Assembly (NCBI GenBank): GCA_964607165.1
Contig: CAZSIT010000005.1
Coordinates: 13,492 to 77,491 of the forward strand
From: an uncultured Ignavibacteria bacterium
Lineage (GTDB): Bacteria; Zixibacteria; MSB-5A5; DSPP01
Direction of reading: 5' to 3'
Length of the DNA: 64,000 bases
How positions within the stretch are numbered: position 1 is the stretch's first letter; the number at the start of each line of letters is the position of its first letter. Both the position numbers and the translations under genes were made by a program. Of the stretch, positions 7,213-40,257 are shown piece by piece. The notes beneath the pieces are model-generated. The model saw nothing but the letters and a program-made list of their open reading frames with translations. It searched no databases and was not told where the DNA came from.

Positions 7213-9462
7213 ATGAAGAAAAGCCTTCTTTTACTTGCAGTTTTATGTATGGTCGTTGCTTCTTCAGCCCGGGCTTTGGTAGTCGGGTCTTGGAAAAACT
7301 TTACAAACACTAATGACGTGCGCGGTTTTGCTTATACCCAAGGTTTTCTCTGGGTGGCTACCACGGGTGGGCTGGTCAAGTTTAATCCGGCCACCAATTC
7401 ACGCGAAGTTTTTACCAACGCCGAAGGCTTGGGGGGAAACTTTCTTTTATCCATCGCCGCCGATGCAAAAGGAAATCTGTGGATGGGGGCGGACAATGGA
7501 ACTTTGACCAAATACGAACCGGGTCAAAACCGTTTTACGATTTTTCCATTTATCGACCGGGATAATCGCGCTTTGAAACTTCAATCTATTCTACCCGACG
7601 GCGACCGGCTCTGGATTGGCACCGATGTCGGCGTGGCACTGTTTTTGACCGAGCGGAACGGGGGTGAGATTAAAGAGATTTACCGGCAGTTCGGCTCCAT
7701 CGATATCGAAACACCGGTCCGGGCCCTGACTTTTTTTCGCGATTCCATCTGGGTAGCCACGCCGCAAGGAGTGGCGGGGGCATCCAAAAACGACCCGAAT
7801 TTGCTCGATTTTTCCCACTGGAAAAGCTTCCGGAAGAGCCCCAGCATCGGTTTAACCAGTGAGGACTGTTATTCCCTTTTAGTATTTCAGGATACCCTTT
7901 TAGTTGGCACCTCCAGCGGCGTTTTTGCTTACCTTCCTGATTCGGTTCGCTTTCGGGCCTATCGTTCGCATTTGGCCTCCGGCCTTGTCGCCTCGATGGC
8001 TTTCGCGGGCGATACCTTGTTTTCCGCCTGGCAATATGGATTGGTGGGTACGATTCCTGGGAACTATTTCGACATGGCGGGCGACTCCGTCAACAACTCG
8101 CGTTTTTTCCCCTCGCTTTTTATTACACCTCAAAAAGAGCTCTTTGTTTCCTTGAACGGGCGCGGTTTTGCCAGGGACCGCGGAGAAAGAAGTTTTGAAA
8201 GGCCTTCGGGAAAAATTTTTCGTCCCCCTGGCCCGCCTGGAAATTACTTTGATGACCTGGCCGTCGATGCGGCCGGGCGGGTCTGGTGTTCCAACGATAT
8301 TTATGGCGCCTCGATGTTTGATGTTAATAGCTCGAAGTGGACGGTTTTTGACACTGTTCCAGAGCTGACGGGACAGGCTTGGGGGATAGATATTGACCAA
8401 GCTGACAACAAATGGTATTCCTTCTGGGGCGGGGGCGCTTCCGTAGCGTGGGGTTTTCAGCCGGATAGTCTTTTACGGTACGACACTTTGAATTCACCTC
8501 TGGTGGGTATTCCCGGTTTCAACTATTTCGTTTTAGTGACGGATGTAGCCGTAGATTATCAGGGGAACGTATGGTTTGCCAACAGTCTATCTTCCAACGG
8601 GCAGGCACTGGTGGTTCGCAAACCGGACGGTAGCTTTGAAGTTTTCGGCCCGGCGGACGGTTTTTTTTCCAATGATATTGTGGCTTTATATCCCGCTGGC
8701 GATCATATCTGGATTGCTTTTAAACCGACTGGGGGTCCGGGGGTGGCTGACTTTAACTTTAACGGCACGGTTTCGAACCACAGCGATGATGTTTTAATTT
8801 ACTACAATAAAGACAATAACTTTATTCTCTCCAATCGGGTGACCGCTATTACCGTTGACCGCCGGGGTACTTTGTGGGCCGGCACCGGCCTCGGTTTATC
8901 CCGCTTCAATGCCGATTTTCAGGTTTTTGAAACGATTAACTTGCCCCAGCCGCTTGGCCCGCAGGTGAATTCGATTGTCGTTGACCCGCGCAACAATAAA
9001 TGGATTGGCACAACGCGGGGATTGGCCGTGATTACCGAGGAAGAAGAAATGTTTGGCCCCTATTTGCCGGAAAATTCCGGTCTGGTCAGCCCTTTGATTA
9101 ACGATATGGTTTTCGACCCAAAGACCGGCTACCTGTGGATTGGCACAACCGGTGGACTCTCGCGTCTTTCCACCCAAGTTTTGGAGGAAGCTGCCCCGCT
9201 TTTAAAAGTGGAAGCGTTTCCCAATCCTTTGTTATTGCGCGATACGGGAGGGAGGGCTTATTTCCGGGGTCTTCCTTTGGATGCAACGGTGAACGTATAT
9301 AACATAGCCGGTGAAGAAGTGCGCAGCCTGAAAAACAGCGATTTTTGGGATGGCAGAAACTCCAAAGGAGAGTTGGTGGCTTCAGGAGTTTACCTTTTTT
9401 TGGTCGCCGACTCGAACGGAGAGCGTTTTACCGGAAAATTAGCCGTCATTCGCCAATTCTGA
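7213..9462 (+). CDS. Secreted beta-propeller repeat protein (two-component-regulator propeller type) with a C-terminal T9SS/FlgD-Ig-like sorting domain.
   Basis: It has a signal peptide, repeated WIGT/WVAT propeller blades, and a C-terminus (AFPNP...VNVYNIAGEEVRSL...WDGRN..GE.VASGVYLF.V...GKLAVIR) matching the FlgD-Ig/por-secretion CTD. Confidence 0.6.
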   Translation: MKKSLLLLAVLCMVVASSARALVVGSWKNFTNTNDVRGFAYTQGFLWVATTGGLVKFNPATNSREVFTNAEGLGGNFLLSIAADAKGNLWMGADNGTLTKYEPGQNRFTIFPFIDRDNRALKLQSILPDGDRLWIGTDVGVALFLTERNGGEIKEIYRQFGSIDIETPVRALTFFRDSIWVATPQGVAGASKNDPNLLDFSHWKSFRKSPSIGLTSEDCYSLLVFQDTLLVGTSSGVFAYLPDSVRFRAYRSHLASGLVASMAFAGDTLFSAWQYGLVGTIPGNYFDMAGDSVNNSRFFPSLFITPQKELFVSLNGRGFARDRGERSFERPSGKIFRPPGPPGNYFDDLAVDAAGRVWCSNDIYGASMFDVNSSKWTVFDTVPELTGQAWGIDIDQADNKWYSFWGGGASVAWGFQPDSLLRYDTLNSPLVGIPGFNYFVLVTDVAVDYQGNVWFANSLSSNGQALVVRKPDGSFEVFGPADGFFSNDIVALYPAGDHIWIAFKPTGGPGVADFNFNGTVSNHSDDVLIYYNKDNNFILSNRVTAITVDRRGTLWAGTGLGLSRFNADFQVFETINLPQPLGPQVNSIVVDPRNNKWIGTTRGLAVITEEEEMFGPYLPENSGLVSPLINDMVFDPKTGYLWIGTTGGLSRLSTQVLEEAAPLLKVEAFPNPLLLRDTGGRAYFRGLPLDATVNVYNIAGEEVRSLKNSDFWDGRNSKGELVASGVYLFLVADSNGERFTGKLAVIRQF

Positions 9463-9464
9463 CC

Positions 9465-10418
9465 TTGGTTGAGCTTCTTACTCCAGCGGAGCTGGATAAA
9501 AAAAAGTGGGAGGATTTGTTGAACGGCTCCGCCCATTCAACTTTTTTTCAGACGGCCGAGTGGTGTCAAATCTGGGGAAAAAGCTTTCCGTTTTTTACCA
9601 GCTATTTTCTGGTTGATATCCGTTCCGACGGCTCTTATCGGGCCGGCCTGCCCTATGTGCAAGCCAAAAAACTTCTGTCCGGTTATTATTCGATGCCAAT
9701 GGGGACGTATGGGGGTGTCGTCGGCTTTCCGGACGTGGCGGCGACAGGGCTTTACGAACGCTGGATGGAAATTACTTCCGGAATAAAACGGGAAAGACTG
9801 GCCGTTTTCTGTGAAGCCCGGCAATTGGAATTGGAAAAACTCGGTTTTTCGGTCAGCTCCGGTTTTTCCCATCGCTTGAGTTTACCCGAGAAGAGACGCC
9901 CGACGCTTTCCCGTTCAGCTGAAAAGCAAATTGGAGAAGCGCTGGAGGCCGGCTTTTCTTTCATAAAGGTGGAGAGAAAACAAGATTTGGCCGATTTTTA
10001 CACTCTGATTGGCAGAGGAAAGAAAAAAACGTTTTATACAAGAAAATTTTATGAAAAAGTTGCTGGTCTTTTGCTTCCCAGCGGCAAGGCCGCTTGGTTT
10101 TTGGCAAAAAAGGATGGAAAAGTGGCCGGTTATCTTTTATGCTTTCCCTTTCGGGATGAATTATTTTTATGGGATGCCGATTTCGATCCAAAATTTTCCA
10201 AATTTCGCCCCGGTTACTTCTTGATGGCAAAAGTAATCGACTGGGCAGTCAACAAAGGTTTTAGGAAAATCAACTTTGGCCAATCGCCGGTTGACGCTTT
10301 TGGAGTAACTCTCCTTAAAGAAAGAATGGGAGCGGAAAAAGTGCCGGTTTATCAATATACCTACTCCTCGAAGATGGTGAAAAAACTTCGTTCGGTCTAC
10401 GAAAAGTTTAAAAAATGA
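9465..10418 (+). CDS. FemAB/BioF2-like GNAT-fold acyltransferase.
   Basis: It is similar to Acetyltransf_6/FemAB family proteins found in polysaccharide loci. A TTG start is proposed just after the upstream stop; the ATG at 9345 would overlap the upstream gene by 118 nt. Confidence 0.5.
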   Translation: MVELLTPAELDKKKWEDLLNGSAHSTFFQTAEWCQIWGKSFPFFTSYFLVDIRSDGSYRAGLPYVQAKKLLSGYYSMPMGTYGGVVGFPDVAATGLYERWMEITSGIKRERLAVFCEARQLELEKLGFSVSSGFSHRLSLPEKRRPTLSRSAEKQIGEALEAGFSFIKVERKQDLADFYTLIGRGKKKTFYTRKFYEKVAGLLLPSGKAAWFLAKKDGKVAGYLLCFPFRDELFLWDADFDPKFSKFRPGYFLMAKVIDWAVNKGFRKINFGQSPVDAFGVTLLKERMGAEKVPVYQYTYSSKMVKKLRSVYEKFKK

Positions 10419-11482
10419 AACTTCTCTTTCTGGGCGACGCCTCAAGCATTCATTTTGCCCGTTGGGCGCATTATTTTGCCCAGCGCGGGCACGAGGTTTT
10501 TACCTCGTCGGCAGAGCCGCCAAAAGAAGAGCTTCCCAACTTCAAGCGTCTGGCCGGCCCCATCAAGTGGCAGCCGTTACGCTATTTAGCCTTGAAAGGT
10601 CAGGTTCGTCAGATGATTACGGAATTAAAGCCCGATTTAGTGAATGCGCACTTTGTTCCCAACTATGGTCTTTTGGGAGCGCTTTCCGGCTTTCATCCGC
10701 TGGTTATTTCCACCTGGGGTTCGGATGTTTTGATTTCTCCTCACAAAAGCTTCCTTCACAAAGCCCGGGCGGCTTATGCTCTTTCAAAAGCCGATTTGGT
10801 CACGACCGATGCCAAAATTTCCCTCGTCGCGGTGGTTCGTTTGGGAGTCAAAAGTGAAAAGGTATTAATGACACCTATGGGCGTTCCAGCGGCTTTTTTG
10901 GAGTCGGGAAGAAAGAAGACACTGGAGAAAAAGGAAATGGTGACCATCTTCTCCTGTCGCCGTCTGGAGAAATTATACAACGTAGAAACTTTGCTTTTGG
11001 CTTTGGCTCGATTGAAAACCGGAAGGCCCTGGCAGGCTTTTATTTTGGGTGAGGGCTCTCAAAAACGAAAGCTGGAGAAGCTGGCCCAGCGATTAAAATT
11101 GGGCTATAAGGTTTCTTTTATGGGGGCATTACCCGTTTCTTATTATCAGGAGCTGTTGCTGAAAAGCGATATCTATGTTTCCACCGCGCTTTCCGATTCC
11201 ACTTCGGTTTCTTTGCTGGAAGCAATGGCAGCCAAACTGGCCTGTATTGTCACCGAAATTCCGGGCAACAGCGAATGGATAAAAGTTATGGAAAACGGAT
11301 TAACCTTTGTCCGAAGGGGTGAGAAAATGCTGGCCTATCTAATTGAACAGTTGGTCGATGACAACGACTTGCGCATCAAGCTGGCGGAGAAGGCCTTTGA
11401 GGAAGTTGAGACAAAAGCGGTTTGGGAGGAGAATATGGCCGAAGTGGAAAAAGCTTTTCTAAAGCTGGTTGATAAAGGTTGA
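10415..11482 (+). CDS. Glycosyltransferase family 4 (GT-B).
   Basis: Its C-terminal GT1/GT4 motifs include E..A(M)A ... P.V.T and LLEAMAAKLACIV. Confidence 0.75.
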   Translation: MKLLFLGDASSIHFARWAHYFAQRGHEVFTSSAEPPKEELPNFKRLAGPIKWQPLRYLALKGQVRQMITELKPDLVNAHFVPNYGLLGALSGFHPLVISTWGSDVLISPHKSFLHKARAAYALSKADLVTTDAKISLVAVVRLGVKSEKVLMTPMGVPAAFLESGRKKTLEKKEMVTIFSCRRLEKLYNVETLLLALARLKTGRPWQAFILGEGSQKRKLEKLAQRLKLGYKVSFMGALPVSYYQELLLKSDIYVSTALSDSTSVSLLEAMAAKLACIVTEIPGNSEWIKVMENGLTFVRRGEKMLAYLIEQLVDDNDLRIKLAEKAFEEVETKAVWEENMAEVEKAFLKLVDKG

Positions 11483-12714
11483 AACCCCGCTCGGTTCTTC
11501 TCATCAGCTATTATTTTCCGCCGCTTGGAATGGCCGGCGTGCAGCGTCCTTTAAAACTGGCCAAATATCTTTTCCGTTTGGGCTGGAAAGTTTATGTCCT
11601 AACCGTTAAACCTGTTTCCTATTGGGAAACCGATGATACACTGTTAAAAGACTTTCCAAAAGAAATCCCAATTTTTCGCGCCGGTTCACTGGACCCGGCA
11701 CGGCTGAAATACCTTTTGGGCCAAAAAAAGCGGGTCGAATCAGGGGCTCGGTCTCACCCCCGTTTCTTGTGGGATTCCAAAATCGGCTTTGTCCCGTTTG
11801 CCTATCTTAAAGCCTCCCGGTTAATCGAAAAATTCGACATTCCGATGGTTTGGACGACTTCGCCGGCCCCTTCGATTCATCTGGTTGGCCAGCTTTTAAA
11901 AAAAAGAAAGGGAGTGCACTGGGTAGCTGACTTTCGCGACCCGTGGGAAGTAGAGGCGCCGGAAGCACGATCCTCGTTTGGGCAAAAAAGAGAAGCAAAA
12001 CTGAAAGGATGGTTGTCCTCTGCCGATGGAGCGACGGTGGTTAATGATAGTTTAAATAAATATTTTTACTCCTTGGCCAGTTCTACCAAAATTGAAACCG
12101 TTTTTAACGGTTTCGAGCCGAAGAATCAAACAAGGCAGTTGCCTGCAAACTCGAAAATTTTCACGCTGGCCTATTGCGGCACATTAAATCCTGTTACGAA
12201 TCCGTATCTTTTTTTGAAAGCGCTGGCGCGCTGGAAAGAGGAGACTAAAAATTCGTTTCGGCTGCTTTTGATTGGTAAAACATTAGGATTGCCTCTATCC
12301 GAATGGTTGACGGGGCTTGGCTTAGTTGATAATACCGAAATCGTAGGATATTTATACCACGAACAAGCGATTAAAAGGCTTTCGGAAGCCGACCTTTTTT
12401 TACTTTTTCTTACTCTGGAAGAAAAATACAAGCTTACTTTACCAGCCAAGATTTTTGAGTATATAGGCTTGGGCCGGCCGATTCTGTCCGTTTCCTCCCC
12501 TCACGGTGCCGTGGCTGATTTTTTGGCCTCCTTTTCGGTCGGCTGCCTGTGTGATACAGAAGAAGCGATAGTGAAAAGTTTGCAGCTCTACCACCAGCTC
12601 TGGGAAGCGCAGGGGTATTTGCGAATTCCGGAAACGGAGCGGGCCCGCTTCGGCTGGGATAAGGAAGCCCAAAAACTTTCAGCTTTCTTGGAAACGAAAC
12701 TAAAAAAAGTATGA
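11479..12714 (+). CDS. Glycosyltransferase, GT4-like.
   Basis: It has the N-terminal Rossmann segment typical of GT4 (LLISYYFPPLGMAGVQR) and translationally overlaps its neighbours. Confidence 0.65.
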   Translation: MKPRSVLLISYYFPPLGMAGVQRPLKLAKYLFRLGWKVYVLTVKPVSYWETDDTLLKDFPKEIPIFRAGSLDPARLKYLLGQKKRVESGARSHPRFLWDSKIGFVPFAYLKASRLIEKFDIPMVWTTSPAPSIHLVGQLLKKRKGVHWVADFRDPWEVEAPEARSSFGQKREAKLKGWLSSADGATVVNDSLNKYFYSLASSTKIETVFNGFEPKNQTRQLPANSKIFTLAYCGTLNPVTNPYLFLKALARWKEETKNSFRLLLIGKTLGLPLSEWLTGLGLVDNTEIVGYLYHEQAIKRLSEADLFLLFLTLEEKYKLTLPAKIFEYIGLGRPILSVSSPHGAVADFLASFSVGCLCDTEEAIVKSLQLYHQLWEAQGYLRIPETERARFGWDKEAQKLSAFLETKLKKV

Positions 12715-14159
12715 ATTTTTGGCAGCGCTTATCCATCGGGCAGAAAATTCTTTCACTCCTTCTCTTGCACTCCGGGTTGCTTTTAATTTTCGTTTTTTTT
12801 CGCTATATCGATGCCGACGAAGGACTTTACCTCTCCGCCGCCCGCGAAGTTTTCTGGGGGCATCGTCCCTATCTCGATTTTATGTACGTTCAAACCCCGT
12901 ACTATCCCTATTTTCTCGCACCGCTTTCCCATTTCGGCTGGAGCGGCCTGTTTTTTTGCCGCTTGATTTCGGCTTTAGCTCCTCTTTTCACCGGCGCGCT
13001 TATTTTTTCTTTGGCCCGCCGGCTTTGGAACGAAAAAACCGCCTTCGTTTTGTGGGGCTTCTGGATATTGAACGGCTTGGTGCTCGTATGGGGCTCGGTT
13101 GCCAAACCGGCCGGATGGGGAGATTTTCTTCTTTTTTTGGGTTTCTGGGCGCTTTTTTTTGGCGCAAATAAATTTGCTGCATTTTTTTCCGGGCTAAGTT
13201 CAGGAATGGCCGTCAATTTACGCGGCTTTTTACTTTTTCCTGCGGCTGTCTGGCCTTTTAGTCTGGTTGCGGATAAGACTCGCAAGGCAAAGGATATTCT
13301 TTTTTGGCTATGCGGTTTCTTGGTCGCCCTGACTTTTTGTTTCTATTTTCTTTTTCAATCGCGGGGGGCCTTCTTTTTCAATAACTATACTTATCATCGC
13401 CTTTGGGGGACGGAAGTCCTTTCCGAGCGGTTTACTTTTTTTCATCGGGTTGCCGCCCTGATGAAGTTCCTGTTTTTCCCCCAAAACCTGGTTCTGTACC
13501 TGCTTGCTGCCGTGGGCATTGTTTTGCGACCAACCGATTTTCGTAAATGGCATCTTATGTTAGTTGCCGGAACGGCTGCAATTATTTTGCATATAGCGTT
13601 TTTTGCTTCCATCCCCTCGATGGTTCAATACTATGTGGAAACGCTGCCTTATTTGGCTCTGTTGGCTGGGTTCGGGTTGGCAGGTCTCCGGGAGAAAACC
13701 TCGAGTAATTTTTGGAGGTTGGGGAAATGGGGATTGATTTCTGCTCATGTTATTTCTTTGGGATTGGTGGTTTATATCTTTCTTTTAGGCCAGCGCCCTC
13801 GCGACCAGCAATATCTTTTGTCCAACGTCCGTCCGGTTGTGACTTATTTGGTTCGGAATGGAACTCCATCCGACACCATTTTTTCCGAATGGCCCGGCTA
13901 TGCCGTTCTGGCCGGTATGCGGCTACCTCGAGGTACGGAAACGGTCGGGCTGGATGTCGCCCATCTTTTAAGTCAGAAAGAAAAAAAAGCTTATCACATC
14001 CTCGATTCTGCCAGAGTTGATTCGATTCTTGCGAACAAGGGAGTAAAATGGGTGGTAACCGGTGGGACGGTTACCGAGGTTTGGCCAAAGCCGCTTGGAG
14101 CCGGCTATAAGCCTGCTTTCAAATCCGGCCCAATTGCCGTTTATCGCCGCAATGAATAG
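12711..14159 (+). CDS. GT-C membrane glycosyltransferase of the ArnT/PMT (GT39/GT83) type.
   Basis: It is multi-TM with a first periplasmic loop carrying a DADEGLY...A motif similar to the ArnT/PMT DE motif. Confidence 0.65.
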   Translation: MNFWQRLSIGQKILSLLLLHSGLLLIFVFFRYIDADEGLYLSAAREVFWGHRPYLDFMYVQTPYYPYFLAPLSHFGWSGLFFCRLISALAPLFTGALIFSLARRLWNEKTAFVLWGFWILNGLVLVWGSVAKPAGWGDFLLFLGFWALFFGANKFAAFFSGLSSGMAVNLRGFLLFPAAVWPFSLVADKTRKAKDILFWLCGFLVALTFCFYFLFQSRGAFFFNNYTYHRLWGTEVLSERFTFFHRVAALMKFLFFPQNLVLYLLAAVGIVLRPTDFRKWHLMLVAGTAAIILHIAFFASIPSMVQYYVETLPYLALLAGFGLAGLREKTSSNFWRLGKWGLISAHVISLGLVVYIFLLGQRPRDQQYLLSNVRPVVTYLVRNGTPSDTIFSEWPGYAVLAGMRLPRGTETVGLDVAHLLSQKEKKAYHILDSARVDSILANKGVKWVVTGGTVTEVWPKPLGAGYKPAFKSGPIAVYRRNE

Positions 14160-15012
14160 CCCCAAAGTTTCGATAATCTGCGTAACCTTTAATTCAGCCG
14201 AATTTCTGTCTGAATTCTTTCAAAGTGTCGAAAAGCTGCCGAAGGGATGGGCGGAAGCTCTTTTCATAGATAATGCTTCAAAGGACAAGACCATTGAGCT
14301 GATTGGAAATTGGGGCAGAGCTGATCATTTAATAACCAACCTCCAAAACTTGGGCTGGTCGGCCGCCAATAATCAGGGGATTGCTGCTTCAAACGGGGAA
14401 ATGGTTCTTTTTGCAAACCCGGATATCCACTTTGAACCGGCAGCTCTGCAAGAATTAGTCCGGTTTCTGGATGAAAGACAGGAATTTGCAGCCGTAGCCC
14501 CACAGCTTATAAATCCGGACGGTTCGATTCAACCCTCCTGCCGTCAGTTACCCGCCATACTTGACCTTTTCTTTCAAATTGTAGGATTGGGAAGACTTTT
14601 CCCCAAAACAATTTTTAACCGCTGGAAAATGCCCGATTTCGACCATCAAAGCTTCAAGGAAGTGGAACAACCAATGACCTCGGCGCTTTTAATCCGGCGC
14701 GAAGCATTTGAGAAAGCAGGAAAACTGGACGAGCGCTTTTTCGTCTTCTTCGGTGACGTTGACTTGGCACACCGGTTAAAAAAGGCCGGATTTCGCCTTG
14801 CTTTCTGGCCGGAAGCAAAGGTTTTTCACCATCGTGGAGGCTCAACAGAGAAAATGCGAGCCGCTTTCTACTTTTCTTCCCACTTTGGTTTTTTTCGCTA
14901 TCTTTGGAAATGGTCGAATCTGCTGGAAAAAGCCGGACTACTATTACTATGGCCATTGGTTCTGGTCTCCGCATCCGGTAGAGCTTTCATTTACTTTTTT
15001 TCCCGGCGCTAA
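14152..15012 (+). CDS. Glycosyltransferase family 2.
   Basis: Its start is SIICVTFNS...IDNAS.D.T (GT2 DXD region). The ATG at 14152 overlaps the upstream stop (ATGAATAG). Confidence 0.75.
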   Translation: MNSPKVSIICVTFNSAEFLSEFFQSVEKLPKGWAEALFIDNASKDKTIELIGNWGRADHLITNLQNLGWSAANNQGIAASNGEMVLFANPDIHFEPAALQELVRFLDERQEFAAVAPQLINPDGSIQPSCRQLPAILDLFFQIVGLGRLFPKTIFNRWKMPDFDHQSFKEVEQPMTSALLIRREAFEKAGKLDERFFVFFGDVDLAHRLKKAGFRLAFWPEAKVFHHRGGSTEKMRAAFYFSSHFGFFRYLWKWSNLLEKAGLLLLWPLVLVSASGRAFIYFFSRR

Positions 15013-33042: not shown

Positions 33043-33070
33043 GTAGGGGTTTGATTAATCAAACCCCTAC
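33043..33070. repeat. REP element: perfect palindrome GTAGGGGTTTGATTAATCAAACCCCTAC.
   Basis: It is a perfect 28-bp palindrome. The stop codon of the AraC-Ogt gene (33059-33061) sits inside it. Confidence 0.8.
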
Positions 33071-33937
33071 AACCTCTTTCCTTCCCGCTTCCCACACCAG
33101 CATCGCCTTCTTTCTTGGCGTGCCCCAGCGGTAGTTGCCGAAGGCGCCGATTTTCTGGATGACCCGGTGGCAGGGGATTAAATAGGCGACGTAGTTATTG
33201 GCCACCGCAGTTCCCACAGCGCGGGAAGCGGCCGGCCGGCCGATGCGCTCGGCAATCTTTTCGTATGAGGCCACACAGCCGGGCGGGATTTTCAAAAGCG
33301 CCTCCCAGACCTTTATCTGGAAATTGGTGCCCTTCAAAAAAAGCTTCATAGGCGTGCCGTTTTGGTTTGTGCCGCCGAAGATTCTTTCCACGTACGGCTT
33401 GGTCGCTTTCCCATTTTCGGCAATCTGGGCGTTGGGCCAATTGGCAGCCAGATATTGCAGGGCCTTTTTGGGATTTTCGTTTTCGATAAAGGAAAGCCCG
33501 CAGATGCCGCGCTCGGTCACAGCTAAAAGGCATTCGCCAAAAGGGGTGGGGTGAATGCCGTAGGAGATTTTCAAACCGGCCCCTTTTTGCTTGTATTCCC
33601 CCGGCGTCATCGCCTCCACGTTCACAAACAAATCGTGCAAACGGCCTGGGCCGGAGAGGCCGGATTCGTAGGCAACATCCAGAACGCTCTCTGATTCCTG
33701 GAGCAGTTTTTTGGCGTAATCAAGGGTCAGAAATTCCAGAAACTTTTTGGGGCTGACGCCGGCCCAACGGGAAAAGAGGCGCTGGAAGTGGAATTCGCTC
33801 AAATGGACACTATTGGCGATTTCCTTTAAGCCGGGCTGGTTGCGGAAGTGTTCTTCCAAATAGCGTATCGCCTGTTCCATCCGAGTGTAGTCGTGGGAGA
33901 GTTTTGCGAAATCGACGGTTTCGACCTGCGTGTTCAT
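33059..33937 (-). CDS. AraC-family HTH / methylated-DNA-[protein]-cysteine S-methyltransferase (Ogt) fusion. It is Ada-like but lacks the N-terminal Zn methylphosphotriester domain.
   Basis: It has an AraC HTH (HLSEFHFQRLF...) and Ogt active-site PCHRV. The start was taken at MNTQ, which has an upstream GGAAGGAAGGAAT RBS. Confidence 0.8.
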   Translation of the reverse strand: MNTQVETVDFAKLSHDYTRMEQAIRYLEEHFRNQPGLKEIANSVHLSEFHFQRLFSRWAGVSPKKFLEFLTLDYAKKLLQESESVLDVAYESGLSGPGRLHDLFVNVEAMTPGEYKQKGAGLKISYGIHPTPFGECLLAVTERGICGLSFIENENPKKALQYLAANWPNAQIAENGKATKPYVERIFGGTNQNGTPMKLFLKGTNFQIKVWEALLKIPPGCVASYEKIAERIGRPAASRAVGTAVANNYVAYLIPCHRVIQKIGAFGNYRWGTPRKKAMLVWEAGRKEVVGV

Positions 33938-34128
33938 ATTCCTTCCTTCCGGTAATATAGGGGTTATTTTTGCGGTTGCGTAATTCATACATACGACAAA
34001 CAAAGGTATATGCGGGGGATAACAACCCGATTCTTGCTCACCTGCTAACCTAAGCCCTTTGCCCCCCCTGGCCGAGTCCCGAGCTCGTCTCGGGCAGGCC
34101 TTCCCGAAACGGGAAGGGGAAAGAGAAA

Positions 34129-34224
34129 GGCGAATGCCATTCGCCCCTACGAAAAACCGCCTCACCCCCGACCCCCTCTCCATTCAATGGAGAGGGGGAA
34201 AGGCACGGCGCGCTGTGCCCCTAC
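34129..34224. repeat. REP cluster of three hairpins: GGCGAATGCCATTCGCCCCTAC, CCCCCTCTCCATTCAATGGAGAGGGGG and GGCACGGCGCGCTGTGCCCCTAC.
   Basis: These are inverted repeats with the family's CCCCTAC ends, lying in a divergent intergenic region. Confidence 0.7.
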
Positions 34225-36027: not shown

Positions 36028-36156
36028 CGGCTTGGCTTATCCCTGGCCCGCCGTAGGCAGGCTCGGGTAGGCGCTCCAGCCATTTTGAAGACGAAGTATT
36101 CCTTCGCCTTCAGCTGAAGCCGTCAAATTGAATGCGGATTCAGCGTTAGAACGACT

Positions 36157-36228
36157 GGGGGTGTAGCTCAGTGGTAGAGCATCTGCCTTTTAAGCAGGAG
36201 GTCGATGGTTCGATCCCATCCACCCTCA
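36157..36228 (+). tRNA. tRNA-Lys (anticodon UUU).
   Basis: It folds as a cloverleaf with the anticodon loop CTTTTAA, TTCGATC in the T-loop, and a 7-bp acceptor stem with discriminator A. Confidence 0.85.
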
Positions 36229-36235
36229 GATAAAT

Positions 36236-36273
36236 ACAGAGATTAGAGACCGGAGATTAGAGATTAGTAAAAA
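36236..36273 (+). repeat. GAGATTA heptad-repeat trailer element (ACAGAGATTAGAGACCGGAGATTAGAGATTAGTAAAAA).
   Basis: It is a tandem 7-nt periodic repeat immediately 3' of tRNA-Lys(UUU). Near-identical copies are at 38775-38813 and a partial copy at 36365-36390. Confidence 0.7.
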
Positions 36274-36284
36274 CAAAAAATCTT

Positions 36285-36357
<73 letters not shown>

Positions 36358-36394
36358 TAGAAGACAGAGATTAGATTCGAGATTAGAAAACTCC

Positions 36395-38336: not shown

Positions 38337-38348
38337 ATTTCAACCACA

Positions 38349-38427
38349 TTTGAATTTCCTTCGGACGCGGGTTCGCCTGCCCGAGCCGGGGACCTCTGGC
38401 CACGGCCAGGGATTCCCCCCGCCTCCA
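38349..38427 (+). repeat. Direct repeat A: copy of the ssrA 3' end (T-arm plus acceptor). It carries a 39-nt insertion in the T-loop and lacks the CCA end.
   Basis: Positions 38349-38375 are identical to tmRNA 38290-38316. Then comes CCTGCCCGAGCCGGGGACCTCTGGCCACGGCCAGGGATT, then CCCCCGCCTCCA. Confidence 0.75.
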
Positions 38428-38431
38428 TTTT

Positions 38432-38701
38432 TTGAATATATTCCGGCCAATGCCATATTATTTTTATGTGTTGCAATCTTCAAAGGATGGTTCCCTTTAC
38501 AAAGGAAGTGCTGAAAATATTGAGATACGTTTAGCCCAGCACAATTCCGGAAAAACGAAAAGTTTGAAGCATCGAATTCCCTTCAAAATGGTTTACTTCG
38601 AAGAATTTTCGACCCGTGAGGAGGCTTTGGCACGGGAGAAGTGGTCGAAAAGTTTGCAGGGAGGCAAAGTTCTTCGCGAACTGTTAAGGGGAAAAATCTA
38701 A
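38432..38701 (+). CDS. GIY-YIG nuclease family protein (UPF0213/YhbQ-like).
   Basis: It has the GIY-YIG core YVLQSSKDGSLYKGSAENIEIRLAQHNSG plus a conserved Glu region (EEFSTREEALAREKW). The ORF exactly fills the space between direct repeats A and B, and it is AT-rich. Confidence 0.8.
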   Translation: MNIFRPMPYYFYVLQSSKDGSLYKGSAENIEIRLAQHNSGKTKSLKHRIPFKMVYFEEFSTREEALAREKWSKSLQGGKVLRELLRGKI

Positions 38702-38703
38702 TC

Positions 38704-38767
38704 GGATGCGGGTTCGCCTGCCCGAGCCGGGGCCTCGTGCCACGGCCAGGGATTCCCACCGCCTCCA
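38704..38767 (+). repeat. Direct repeat B: second ssrA-3'-end-like copy with the same 39-nt T-loop insertion.
   Basis: It is about 90% identical to repeat A. It starts 3 nt after the GIY-YIG stop and is followed at once by the GAGATTA heptad element (38775-38813). Confidence 0.75.
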
Positions 38768-38774
38768 TTTTAAT

Positions 38775-38813
38775 ACAGAGATTGGAGACTGGAGATTAGA
38801 GATTAGTAAAAAA
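38775..38813 (+). repeat. GAGATTA heptad-repeat trailer element (third copy).
   Basis: ACAGAGATTGGAGACTGGAGATTAGAGATTAGTAAAAAA is about 90% identical to 36236-36273. Confidence 0.7.
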
Positions 38814-38920
38814 CCGAATCGTCACTTTTTATTTGGTAGTGGCAACCTTTAGGTTTCCATATCTTGATTTTATGCTGACACATATGAAAAAACGAAAAGA
38901 GAGATGAGGCGGGTGATGGT

Positions 38921-40117
38921 ATGTCCTTGACAGATATTTGGTTGAAGTCTCGAAATCAGCTTGAAGAAAAACACATCCAACAAATAATTTCCTTTTCGGG
39001 GGACGGACAACTTAAGGATGGAAGCAAAGCGTCGGACGAATTCCGAAGTTTTCTTTCAAATGTACCCTCGATTTTTCTTCGCCGATATGCAGATCAATGT
39101 CTGCAAAATTCGTTTAACAATTCAGGACTTGTACTTCAAGATATTATTAATCAAGTTGGACGACGCTTAGGTTTCAAAGTTACGGATGGCAGGTATCGTG
39201 GCACTGTCGGCCAAATTGGATATGATGGTATATGGGACTTTCCTTTAGAGCATTCGGTAATTGTGGAGGTTAAAACAACCGATGCATACCGAATTGATCT
39301 GGACACCATTGCTCAATACCGGCGGACTTTAATTGATAATGGAACGATTTCAAAAGAGAATTCATCAATTCTAATCATTGTTGGTCGTGGCGACACTGGG
39401 GACTTAGAAGCTCAGATTAGAGGGTCACGTCATGCGTGGGACGTTAGACTAATCAGCATTGACGCGCTCATGAGATTGTTGGCATTAAAAGAAGCCGTTG
39501 AAGACCCGAAAATTATTAACAGAATCCATGCAATATTGATTCCGAGAGAGTTTACTAAACTTGACGAGATAATTGAGGTTGTGTTTTCCACTGCTGAAGA
39601 TGTGAAACAAGAGGAAGTAGAAAAAGTAGACGTTCAGGATAAACTCACTACGAAAACGGATACTCCGGTCTCATTCCACGAAGCGTGCATTGACCGTATA
39701 CAAAAACATTTGAAATGCTCTCTTGTCAAGCGTTCTCGCGCTTCATTTTCATCGGCGGACGGCTCACTTGCTTTGATCTGTGCTATTTCAAAAACCTACG
39801 ATAAAGATACTCGAATGGTGTTTTGGTTTGCTTTTCACCCTCACCAAAGGGAATTCTTAGAGCATGCAAAACAAGGCTTCGTTGCGTTCGGGTGCGGATC
39901 AGTGGAAACCTTGTTATTAATACCGGCGCCAGAGTTTTTGCCATGGTTAGATGGAATGAACATAACTGAACTTGAAAACAAAAAATATTATTGGCATGTC
40001 CATATTTTCTATGAAAATGGAAAGTTCAGTCTTTATAGAAAGAAGGGGGCAAAGCAATTTGATTTAACGAAATTTTTGATTCCCGGCGAATCAAGTGCAA
40101 AACGACCCAATAAATAA
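38921..40117 (+). CDS. Hypothetical 398-aa protein. It has an Mrr-cat-like PD-(D/E)xK nuclease motif in the N-terminal half and an uncharacterised C-terminal domain.
   Basis: GQIGYDGIWDF...VIVEVKTT fits the D...(D/E)xK pattern of Mrr-type restriction endonuclease cores. The C-terminal 200 aa (..FWFAFHPHQREF...YYWHVHIFYENG..) match nothing I recognise. The gene is strongly AT-rich relative to its flanks and has an upstream GAGG RBS. Confidence 0.5.
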   Translation: MSLTDIWLKSRNQLEEKHIQQIISFSGDGQLKDGSKASDEFRSFLSNVPSIFLRRYADQCLQNSFNNSGLVLQDIINQVGRRLGFKVTDGRYRGTVGQIGYDGIWDFPLEHSVIVEVKTTDAYRIDLDTIAQYRRTLIDNGTISKENSSILIIVGRGDTGDLEAQIRGSRHAWDVRLISIDALMRLLALKEAVEDPKIINRIHAILIPREFTKLDEIIEVVFSTAEDVKQEEVEKVDVQDKLTTKTDTPVSFHEACIDRIQKHLKCSLVKRSRASFSSADGSLALICAISKTYDKDTRMVFWFAFHPHQREFLEHAKQGFVAFGCGSVETLLLIPAPEFLPWLDGMNITELENKKYYWHVHIFYENGKFSLYRKKGAKQFDLTKFLIPGESSAKRPNK

Positions 40118-40257
40118 AACTTTCTCTATAAACAACGCGAAGAATTGGCAGCTTTAGAGCAAGCAAAAATGTGAACCGCCCCGATGACAGTCACAGTAGA
40201 AGAGGGAGCCCAAAATGTTCACTACCCTGATAACCATCACTTATAAGGAGGTAAAAT

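Follow-up and report, generated by a model that had tools for sequence, protein, structure and literature searches.

A protein of 398 residues, encoded in a 64,000-nucleotide stretch of DNA from an uncultured Ignavibacteria bacterium (assembly GCA_964607165.1, contig CAZSIT010000005.1, positions 13,492 to 77,491; hereafter the window, numbered from its first nucleotide), is a credible candidate for a new defence enzyme of the restriction type that is encoded by a single gene and has a sensor domain of potentially general use. This proposal is built on the combination of a predicted nuclease domain, whose active-site residues are invariant, with a second domain that recurs on many other effectors of prokaryotic immunity, and on the way in which the gene and its relatives are distributed among genomes.

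The open reading frame (ORF) singled out by a first-pass annotation, made from the letters of the window, is complete and contains the peptides quoted there (Table 1). The product found no significant match in Pfam, NCBIfam, PHROGs or PADLOC; none of the 5,027 models of PADLOC-DB v2.0.0 matched it at E ≤ 1, and weak matches to CttA_N and FTL_1293 fell below the cut-off and were taken as chance. Against PDB sequences, neither the protein itself nor profiles of its full length, its N-terminal part and its C-terminal part gave more than chance matches to antibodies and P5CS, and a PDB profile search with the C-terminal-domain alignment returned chance antibody matches alone. The full-length protein was modelled with AlphaFold2 on 43 homologues, which also served for the conservation alignment, and the resulting model (predicted local distance difference test score, pLDDT, 82.9; predicted template-modelling score, pTM, 0.80) consists of two ordered domains with a disordered acidic linker between them. 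An internal duplication of the two domains was considered and discarded (hhalign probability 0.2%).

The N-terminal domain is predicted to contain the alpha-beta-beta-beta-alpha-beta core that characterises the PD-(D/E)xK superfamily, and all 43 homologues, from many phyla, share its residues D102, E116 and K118. Its best structural matches are HindIII, which ranks first, FokI and BspD6I, with a structure-based identity of 10-13%, and the protein is very probably an active nuclease of this superfamily. In the most conserved block of the family, from G155 to S179, the residues R156, D158, T159, L162, E163, A164, Q165, R167, G168, S169, A172, W173, R176 and S179 are invariant, and we infer that this block forms a dimer or DNA interface. 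The first-pass annotation had assigned the domain to the Mrr type. The superfamily part of that assignment is borne out by the fold and by the three invariant residues, but membership of the Mrr family itself was rejected: there was no Pfam match to Mrr_cat (PF04471) at E ≤ 1 and nothing in NCBIfam, and Mrr-like structures are not the nearest structural neighbours.

The C-terminal half of the protein had been described as an unrecognised domain of 200 residues. Its ordered part is shorter, of about 145 residues (248-390) after the disordered linker, and, while profile libraries indeed fail to recognise it, its predicted fold is not a new one but a second restriction-endonuclease fold, the top matches of which include BisI-family enzymes and the homing endonuclease I-Ssp6803I. 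Among the positions conserved at 80% or more are F252, C256, C287, S290, W302, F305, Q309 and L313, as well as G324-C325-G326-S327, P335, T349 and Y357-W358-H359. No Asp, Glu or Lys reaches this level among 77 proteins carrying the domain in other architectures, and the domain is regarded, as far as its sequence can tell, as catalytically dead by canonical criteria. BisI enzymes keep a Glu in helix alpha1, an xD and a QxK motif in strand beta3 (PMC11347163). In contrast to the members of that family (NhoI, the N-terminal domain of Eco15I), the domain described here lacks conserved Asp, Glu and Lys residues and gave no sequence-profile match; its BisI membership was thus rejected on the absence of the catalytic motifs, the predicted third strand reading YWFAFHP.

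A key observation came from the re-use of this C-terminal domain. When 1.84 billion cluster representatives were searched exhaustively with a profile of the domain, 1,058 proteins reached E ≤ 1e-3, of which 717 passed 1e-10 and 155 passed 1e-30; in all of the best 150 of the 1,058 the domain is located at the C-terminus or close to it. The 149 that were classified (P0121-P0269) comprise 72 with the window-type N-terminal nuclease, whole or as fragments, and 77 without it. Pfam scans of these 77 identified GmrSD_N, with or without GmrSD_C, in 8 representatives, GmrSD_C in 6, HEPN_Swt1 in 2 (one also with the RiboL-PSP HEPN), SIR2_2 plus TPR in 2, and PIN_8, HNH, RelA/SpoT and GIY-YIG in 1 each, the GIY-YIG case being a batch match only; several further proteins have N-termini without Pfam recognition. 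Every partner that Pfam recognised is an effector or toxin domain with a use in prokaryotic immunity and, since so many different effectors have the C-terminal domain in common, the simplest reading is that it is their sensing or targeting part. Variable add-on domains at the C-terminus, such as DUF4268 and DUF4357, have been described in GmrSD proteins (PMC4619093). The Pfam model of DUF4268 (PF14088) matched neither the window protein, nor 10 GmrSD, HEPN and SIR2 fusions, nor the 77 domain carriers, and that of DUF4357 did not match the C-terminal domain. GmrSD is the commonest alternative partner, although the window protein itself has no GmrSD domains. Two side observations concern these architectures: one representative, P0123, is a standalone C-terminal-domain gene on a short contig, and at two loci (L098, 6134-8477, and L099, 5629-7972) a SIR2-TPR protein with the C-terminal domain is directly followed by a gene of the uracil-DNA glycosylase (UDG) family.

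These data raise the possibility, which is put forward tentatively, that the C-terminal domain is an immune sensor that has so far gone undescribed and is re-used widely, that is, a dead restriction-endonuclease fold with a Cys3-His and aromatic signature that links a single class of signal from the invader, plausibly DNA that is modified or non-self in some other way, with about eight unrelated effector chemistries (PD-ExK, GmrSD, HNH, GIY-YIG, PIN, HEPN, SIR2 and RelA/SpoT). The 398-residue protein would then found a new restriction family that lacks a methyltransferase and is common in uncultured bacteria of soil and sediment.

The two domains can be integrated into a single model, whose chances of being right as a whole are judged to be even. 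According to this model, the protein would be a self-contained, horizontally mobile restriction nuclease of the Type IV or END-like kind, in which a cleavage module is joined to a sensor module. The N-terminal residues, about 230, would constitute a cleavage domain similar to those of FokI, HindIII and BspD6I, with D102, E116 and K118 in the active site, whereas the C-terminal residues, about 145, would recognise a feature of the target and license the N-terminal domain to cut, a step that would probably require the pairing of two cleavage domains, as in FokI. Like the Type IV enzymes, the protein is a predicted nuclease without a cognate methyltransferase. As there is no obligatory methyltransferase, discrimination would have to use a feature of the invader, as it does in Type IV enzymes and in the recently described END nucleases, so that self and non-self would be told apart by a feature such as a base modification or a DNA structure and not by host methylation, and the role of the enzyme would presumably be anti-phage or anti-plasmid. 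The partnership with GmrSD and the presence of Vsr and C5 methyltransferase genes near some homologues (see below) hint at modified cytosine, or modified DNA in general, as the cue, which should be taken as a lead and not as a result.

The genomic context of the homologues was surveyed by calling ORFs in 80 loci, with an identity of 49-60% to the window protein and from many phyla, and clustering the 1,243 ORFs by all-against-all BLAST. No conserved partner gene emerged: even the most frequent neighbour cluster is present in 8 of 76 loci at most. A Pfam scan of 271 flanking ORFs (positions ±1 and ±2) showed housekeeping genes mixed with genes of mobile or defence type, the latter including four Vsr, helicases, two RhuM, DDE transposases, MNT, ParE, phage integrases and helix-turn-helix (HTH) regulators; only 2 DNA methyltransferases (one N6, one C5) were among them. 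The surroundings differ widely: one homologue is inserted between guaA/VapBC and dnaE, another adjoins uvrD, and a third lies in a mobile region with Rad52, HTH, ParD, M78 peptidase and primase genes. At L089 (1595-7954), genes for DUF6361, a 623-residue PLD-like protein and a DEAD-type helicase of 1086 residues are found directly upstream of the homologue, in what looks like a separate defence system.

A different picture is offered by a minority of loci. Of 76 loci, about 9 have a C5 methyltransferase gene no more than about 8 ORFs away from the homologue, and 6 have a Vsr gene no more than 5 ORFs away; HATPase_c_3 ATPases, a KAP NTPase or a UvrD-PD-(D/E)xK helicase-nuclease occur alongside them. 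Two Geobacter loci (L064, 4833-11188, and L071, 4984-11182) contain a tight co-directional block formed by a C5 methyltransferase, a HATPase_c_3 protein of about 720 residues, an uncharacterised protein of 376-428 residues, Vsr and the homologue. The block of L071 is inserted in an ABC-2 transporter operon, which indicates that it moved as a unit. These loci, together with the resemblance to HindIII, FokI and BspD6I, are what would be expected of a conventional Type II or IIS endonuclease whose host is shielded by a C5 methyltransferase, the gene of which is a neighbour in some loci and lies at another site of the genome in the rest. This explanation is nevertheless improbable. About 67 of the 76 loci (around 88%), the window included, have no C5 methyltransferase nearby, and the flanking ORFs hold a single N6-type enzyme; the methyltransferase gene downstream in the window encodes, judging from its sequence, a UbiE-type small-molecule enzyme and not a DNA methyltransferase, and it differs in GC content. 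Moreover, the methyltransferase at L076 is already paired with a NotI-like nuclease of its own, the methyltransferase modules vary in order and content from locus to locus, and the C-terminal domain is common to effectors that are not DNases. The HATPase_c_3 gene and its uncharacterised neighbour beside the Dcm-Vsr pair may be a restriction module in their own right. The C5 methyltransferase and Vsr neighbourhoods are therefore read as occasional residence in 'immigration control' clusters rich in restriction-modification genes and not as an obligatory partnership.

Some of the evidence weighs against the two-module restriction model. The C5 methyltransferase genes near a minority of the homologues, just described, may reflect a facultative link to restriction-modification. 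The association with defence islands, which had also been anticipated in the first-pass annotation, turned out to be weak, as about 8 of 142 immediate neighbours match PADLOC at E ≤ 1e-10 and many loci lie amid housekeeping genes, and the contexts of the HEPN, GmrSD and SIR2 fusions with the C-terminal domain are unremarkable. HindIII, the top structural match, recognises and cuts DNA with one domain and, by analogy, the N-terminal domain might hold its own specificity. Finally, the Cys3-His signature of the C-terminal domain could mean a role other than DNA binding. The earlier suggestion that the gene is a candidate for defence is supported, on the other side, by the effector fusions and by the minority of loci beside C5 methyltransferase and Vsr modules.

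If the C-terminal domain senses something other than DNA, the protein could be an effector of abortive infection, or a toxin, in which a phage protein or another non-DNA cue of infection frees the nuclease to act on any DNA, that of the host included. CapRel is a single-chain sensor of this sort. The domain is found, as mentioned, on SIR2, HEPN, PIN and RelA/SpoT, effectors whose target is not the DNA of the invader; the loci contain neither a methyltransferase nor an immunity gene as a regular component, and toxin-antitoxin neighbours (ParD/ParE, VapBC/PIN, MNT) are frequent. In addition, the homologue is split in 4 of the 80 loci (L018, L027, L032 and L072), into separate ORFs for the N- and C-terminal domains by frameshifts or truncations, which suggests recurrent inactivation, as expected of a costly gene. 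However, the C-terminal domain has the fold of a DNA enzyme, its commonest other partner, GmrSD, is a DNA-modification-dependent restriction enzyme, and the nuclease domain is nearest to the cleavage domains of restriction enzymes. Abortive infection is for these reasons considered unlikely, and the restriction model was retained.

The notion that the protein is an orphan, put forward from the sequence of the window, had to be abandoned. A search of 5.8 billion protein clusters yielded 3,801 homologues at E ≤ 1e-3. The best 120 of these 3,801 are nearly all full length (381-444 residues, query coverage 91-100%, identity 56-66%), no Pfam domain is present in any of those 120, and the named ones bear the label hypothetical. 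Relatives were found in at least 359 of 185,579 species-representative genomes (one genome per species), a figure that is a lower bound because the scan relied on two peptide patterns. The carriers include Acidobacteriota, Chloroflexota, Nitrospirota, Desulfobacterota, Verrucomicrobiota, Planctomycetota, Gemmatimonadota, Burkholderiales and Heliomicrobium. The sole archaeal case, L029, is a contig of 1.6 kb binned as Bathyarchaeota that may be mis-binned, and a cultured, publicly held carrier is Hydrogenophaga flava NBRC 102514 (L043, 10001-11170; 53% identity). No member was found among 72,556 plasmids (PLSDB) or 50,697 phage genomes (INPHARED), and the 2.9 million contigs of IMG/VR gave one truncated match. 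The family is therefore one of chromosomal genes of mostly uncultured bacteria, and the high identity between distant hosts, together with the patchy presence, points to horizontal spread. A nuclease of DNA repair or recombination, with a housekeeping-like role, would be in keeping with the Vsr, Rad52, UvrD and helicase genes seen among the neighbours, but it is hard to reconcile with so patchy a distribution, with the foreign composition and island location of the window gene, or with the lack of conserved synteny and the disrupted copies, and this explanation is considered very improbable.

The location of the window gene is in keeping with horizontal mobility. As the first-pass annotation had stated, its composition is foreign to the flanks: its GC content, 0.405 (0.366 at third codon positions, GC3), compares with a window mean of 0.513 (sd 0.031) and is the minimum among all 1197-nt segments of the 64 kb, while the UbiE-type gene downstream has a GC content of 0.584. 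The gene belongs to a low-GC island of about 1.9 kb, which begins immediately downstream of a transfer-messenger RNA (tmRNA) gene, 585 nt upstream of the nuclease ORF, that is the integration target and forms the left border of the island. An integration hotspot beside a GIY-YIG gene had been proposed, and this was substantiated by the tmRNA gene and by two partial copies of its 3' end, R1 and R2, which bracket the GIY-YIG ORF, a neighbour distinct from the nuclease gene. To the right of the nuclease gene, the window contains no integrase gene, and the repeat search found neither a repeat nor an attachment (att) copy there. The layout is mirrored at L048 (Desulfobacterales, 8048-11170), where the order is SmpB, tmRNA, integrase fragment and homologue, and where the island has a GC content of 0.45-0.56 in a host of about 0.69. 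Hence, in two unrelated genomes, that of the window and that of L048, the gene is cargo of low-GC islands adjacent to a tmRNA gene. From its translation, the L048 integrase fragment (152 residues, minus strand) appears to be the C-terminal part of a tyrosine recombinase. At L072, a contig of a Verrucomicrobiota metagenome-assembled genome, the homologue is placed within an array of 18 tRNA genes (8628-14213), and the copy is truncated or split, with the N-terminal domain alone in an ORF of 209 residues (10001-10630).

Such locations also bring to mind a selfish, free-standing endonuclease of the homing type, spreading by cutting empty sites. The occurrence of a single gene in widely differing surroundings that share no neighbour, the presence of I-Ssp6803I among the top fold matches of the C-terminal domain, and the tRNA or tmRNA genes that adjoin it in several loci are compatible with this idea. 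In contrast, the family is absent from plasmids and virtually absent from phages, neither an intron or intein context nor a repeated target-site signature was seen at the window gene, and fusions of the C-terminal domain to SIR2, HEPN or RelA/SpoT would make no sense under homing, which leaves this explanation with a very small chance of being correct.

Table 1. Positions in the window of the nuclease gene, its domains and conserved motifs, and the elements of the tmRNA-side island.
Feature	Position	Strand	Basis
tmRNA gene, tag ANDYVALAA	37978..38336	+	ARAGORN; Rfam RF00023, 183.8 bits
Low-GC island, GC about 0.40-0.44, from tmRNA gene to methyltransferase gene of GC 0.58	38337..40250	.	composition profile
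R1, partial tmRNA 3'-end copy with insert of ~35 nt in T-loop	38346..38431	+	repeat search
GIY-YIG ORF, 89 residues	38432..38701	+	Pfam GIY-YIG, E 1.4e-14
R2, second interrupted tmRNA 3'-end copy, 91-97% identical to R1	38702..38771	+	repeat search
Complete ORF, putative two-domain nuclease, 398 residues	38921..40117	+	ORF listing, ATG to stop
N-terminal domain, residues 1-232: helical lead-in and predicted PD-(D/E)xK core, FokI/HindIII/BspD6I-like	38921..39616	+	
D102 codon GAT, 'PD' aspartate	39224..39226	+	invariant in 43/43 sequences
E116-V117-K118 codons GAG GTT AAA, '(D/E)xK'	39266..39274	+	E116 and K118 invariant
Most conserved family block, G155-S179, GRxDTGDLEAQIRGSRHAWDxRLIS	39383..39457	+	43-sequence alignment
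Disordered acidic linker, residues 230-247	39608..39661	+	pLDDT <50; length variable in alignment
C-terminal domain, residues 248-390, predicted restriction-endonuclease fold without conserved catalytic residues; proposed sensor/targeting module	39662..40090	+	

Some further features of the region deserve mention. R1 and R2 correspond to the T-arm plus the acceptor strand (70-86 nt), carry the same GC-rich T-loop insert of about 35 nt, and abut exactly the start and the stop of the GIY-YIG ORF; the repeat unit has a spacing of 340-341 nt. No further copy of this repeat type is present within the 64 kb, and the fold energy of R1 is -36 kcal/mol (z -2.4). The R1/GIY-YIG/R2 arrangement could be a small tmRNA-targeting GIY-YIG cassette or the remnants of serial integration. 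Two tRNA-Lys genes, with anticodons TTT and CTT, are located on the forward strand at 36156-36358, about 1.6 kb upstream of the tmRNA gene, and an ORF of 374 residues on the reverse strand (33059-34183), which contains LIPCHRVI, resembles in its translation an Ada-type regulator fused to an O6-alkylguanine-DNA alkyltransferase. A promoter scan gave 7 promoter-like sites, versus 3.2 expected, with no convincing placement, and a terminator scan was likewise uninformative.

When the protein is set beside known systems, both its nuclease superfamily and its general design, in which a cleavage module and a reader module work without a methyltransferase, are of a known kind. Its cleavage domain is FokI-like by predicted structure, yet Pfam and PDB profiles detect no sequence similarity to FokI, BspD6I or HindIII. 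Unlike FokI, the window protein has no cognate methyltransferase, its domain order is reversed, with the nuclease first, and its proposed recognition module is unrelated. MspJI, SauUSI and the SRA-HNH proteins are single-chain Type IV enzymes that combine a nuclease with a separate reader and need no methyltransferase (PMC3479186, PMC3141236, PMC4333417). Their readers, namely the N-terminal DNA-binding domain of MspJI, SRA and helicase-associated domains, have other folds, and dependence on modification is, in the protein described here, a proposal. The closest in operating logic are the END nucleases (END-PaCF1 and its relatives), which are solitary, lack a methyltransferase and a conserved neighbour, and have been shown experimentally to restrict hypermodified phages; they consist of an N-terminal PLD (HxK) nuclease and an inactive EndoIII/Ogg1 C-terminal sensor that is also fused to other effectors (PMC12191111). 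The likeness, a solitary nuclease with a dead-enzyme sensor that is re-used elsewhere, is one of design and not of homology, since the window protein would combine a PD-ExK nuclease with a motif-less restriction-endonuclease fold, showed no sequence relationship to END proteins and has no Pfam match to the HhH-GPD (EndoIII/Ogg1) domain, and it is for END that phage data are available. What appears to be new, from the sequence comparisons, is a large family unnamed in every library tested and a C-terminal domain with no Pfam match, DUF4268 having been compared by its Pfam model only.

Should the two-module model fail, the gene would still be a well-defined two-domain nuclease. If it is true, the gene would represent a large and phylogenetically broad family of single-gene restriction enzymes, with at least 3,800 sequence clusters and almost all of its members in uncultured bacteria, which current annotation and defence-finder resources label, without exception, as hypothetical. 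The pairing of a FokI-like cleavage module with a small reader domain would, in that case, make it a possible tool for mapping DNA modifications. Furthermore, a sensor domain common to nucleases, RNases, NADases and alarmone synthetases would amount to a compact, plug-and-play form of immunity, and any one of the fusions could then serve to find the ligand of the domain.

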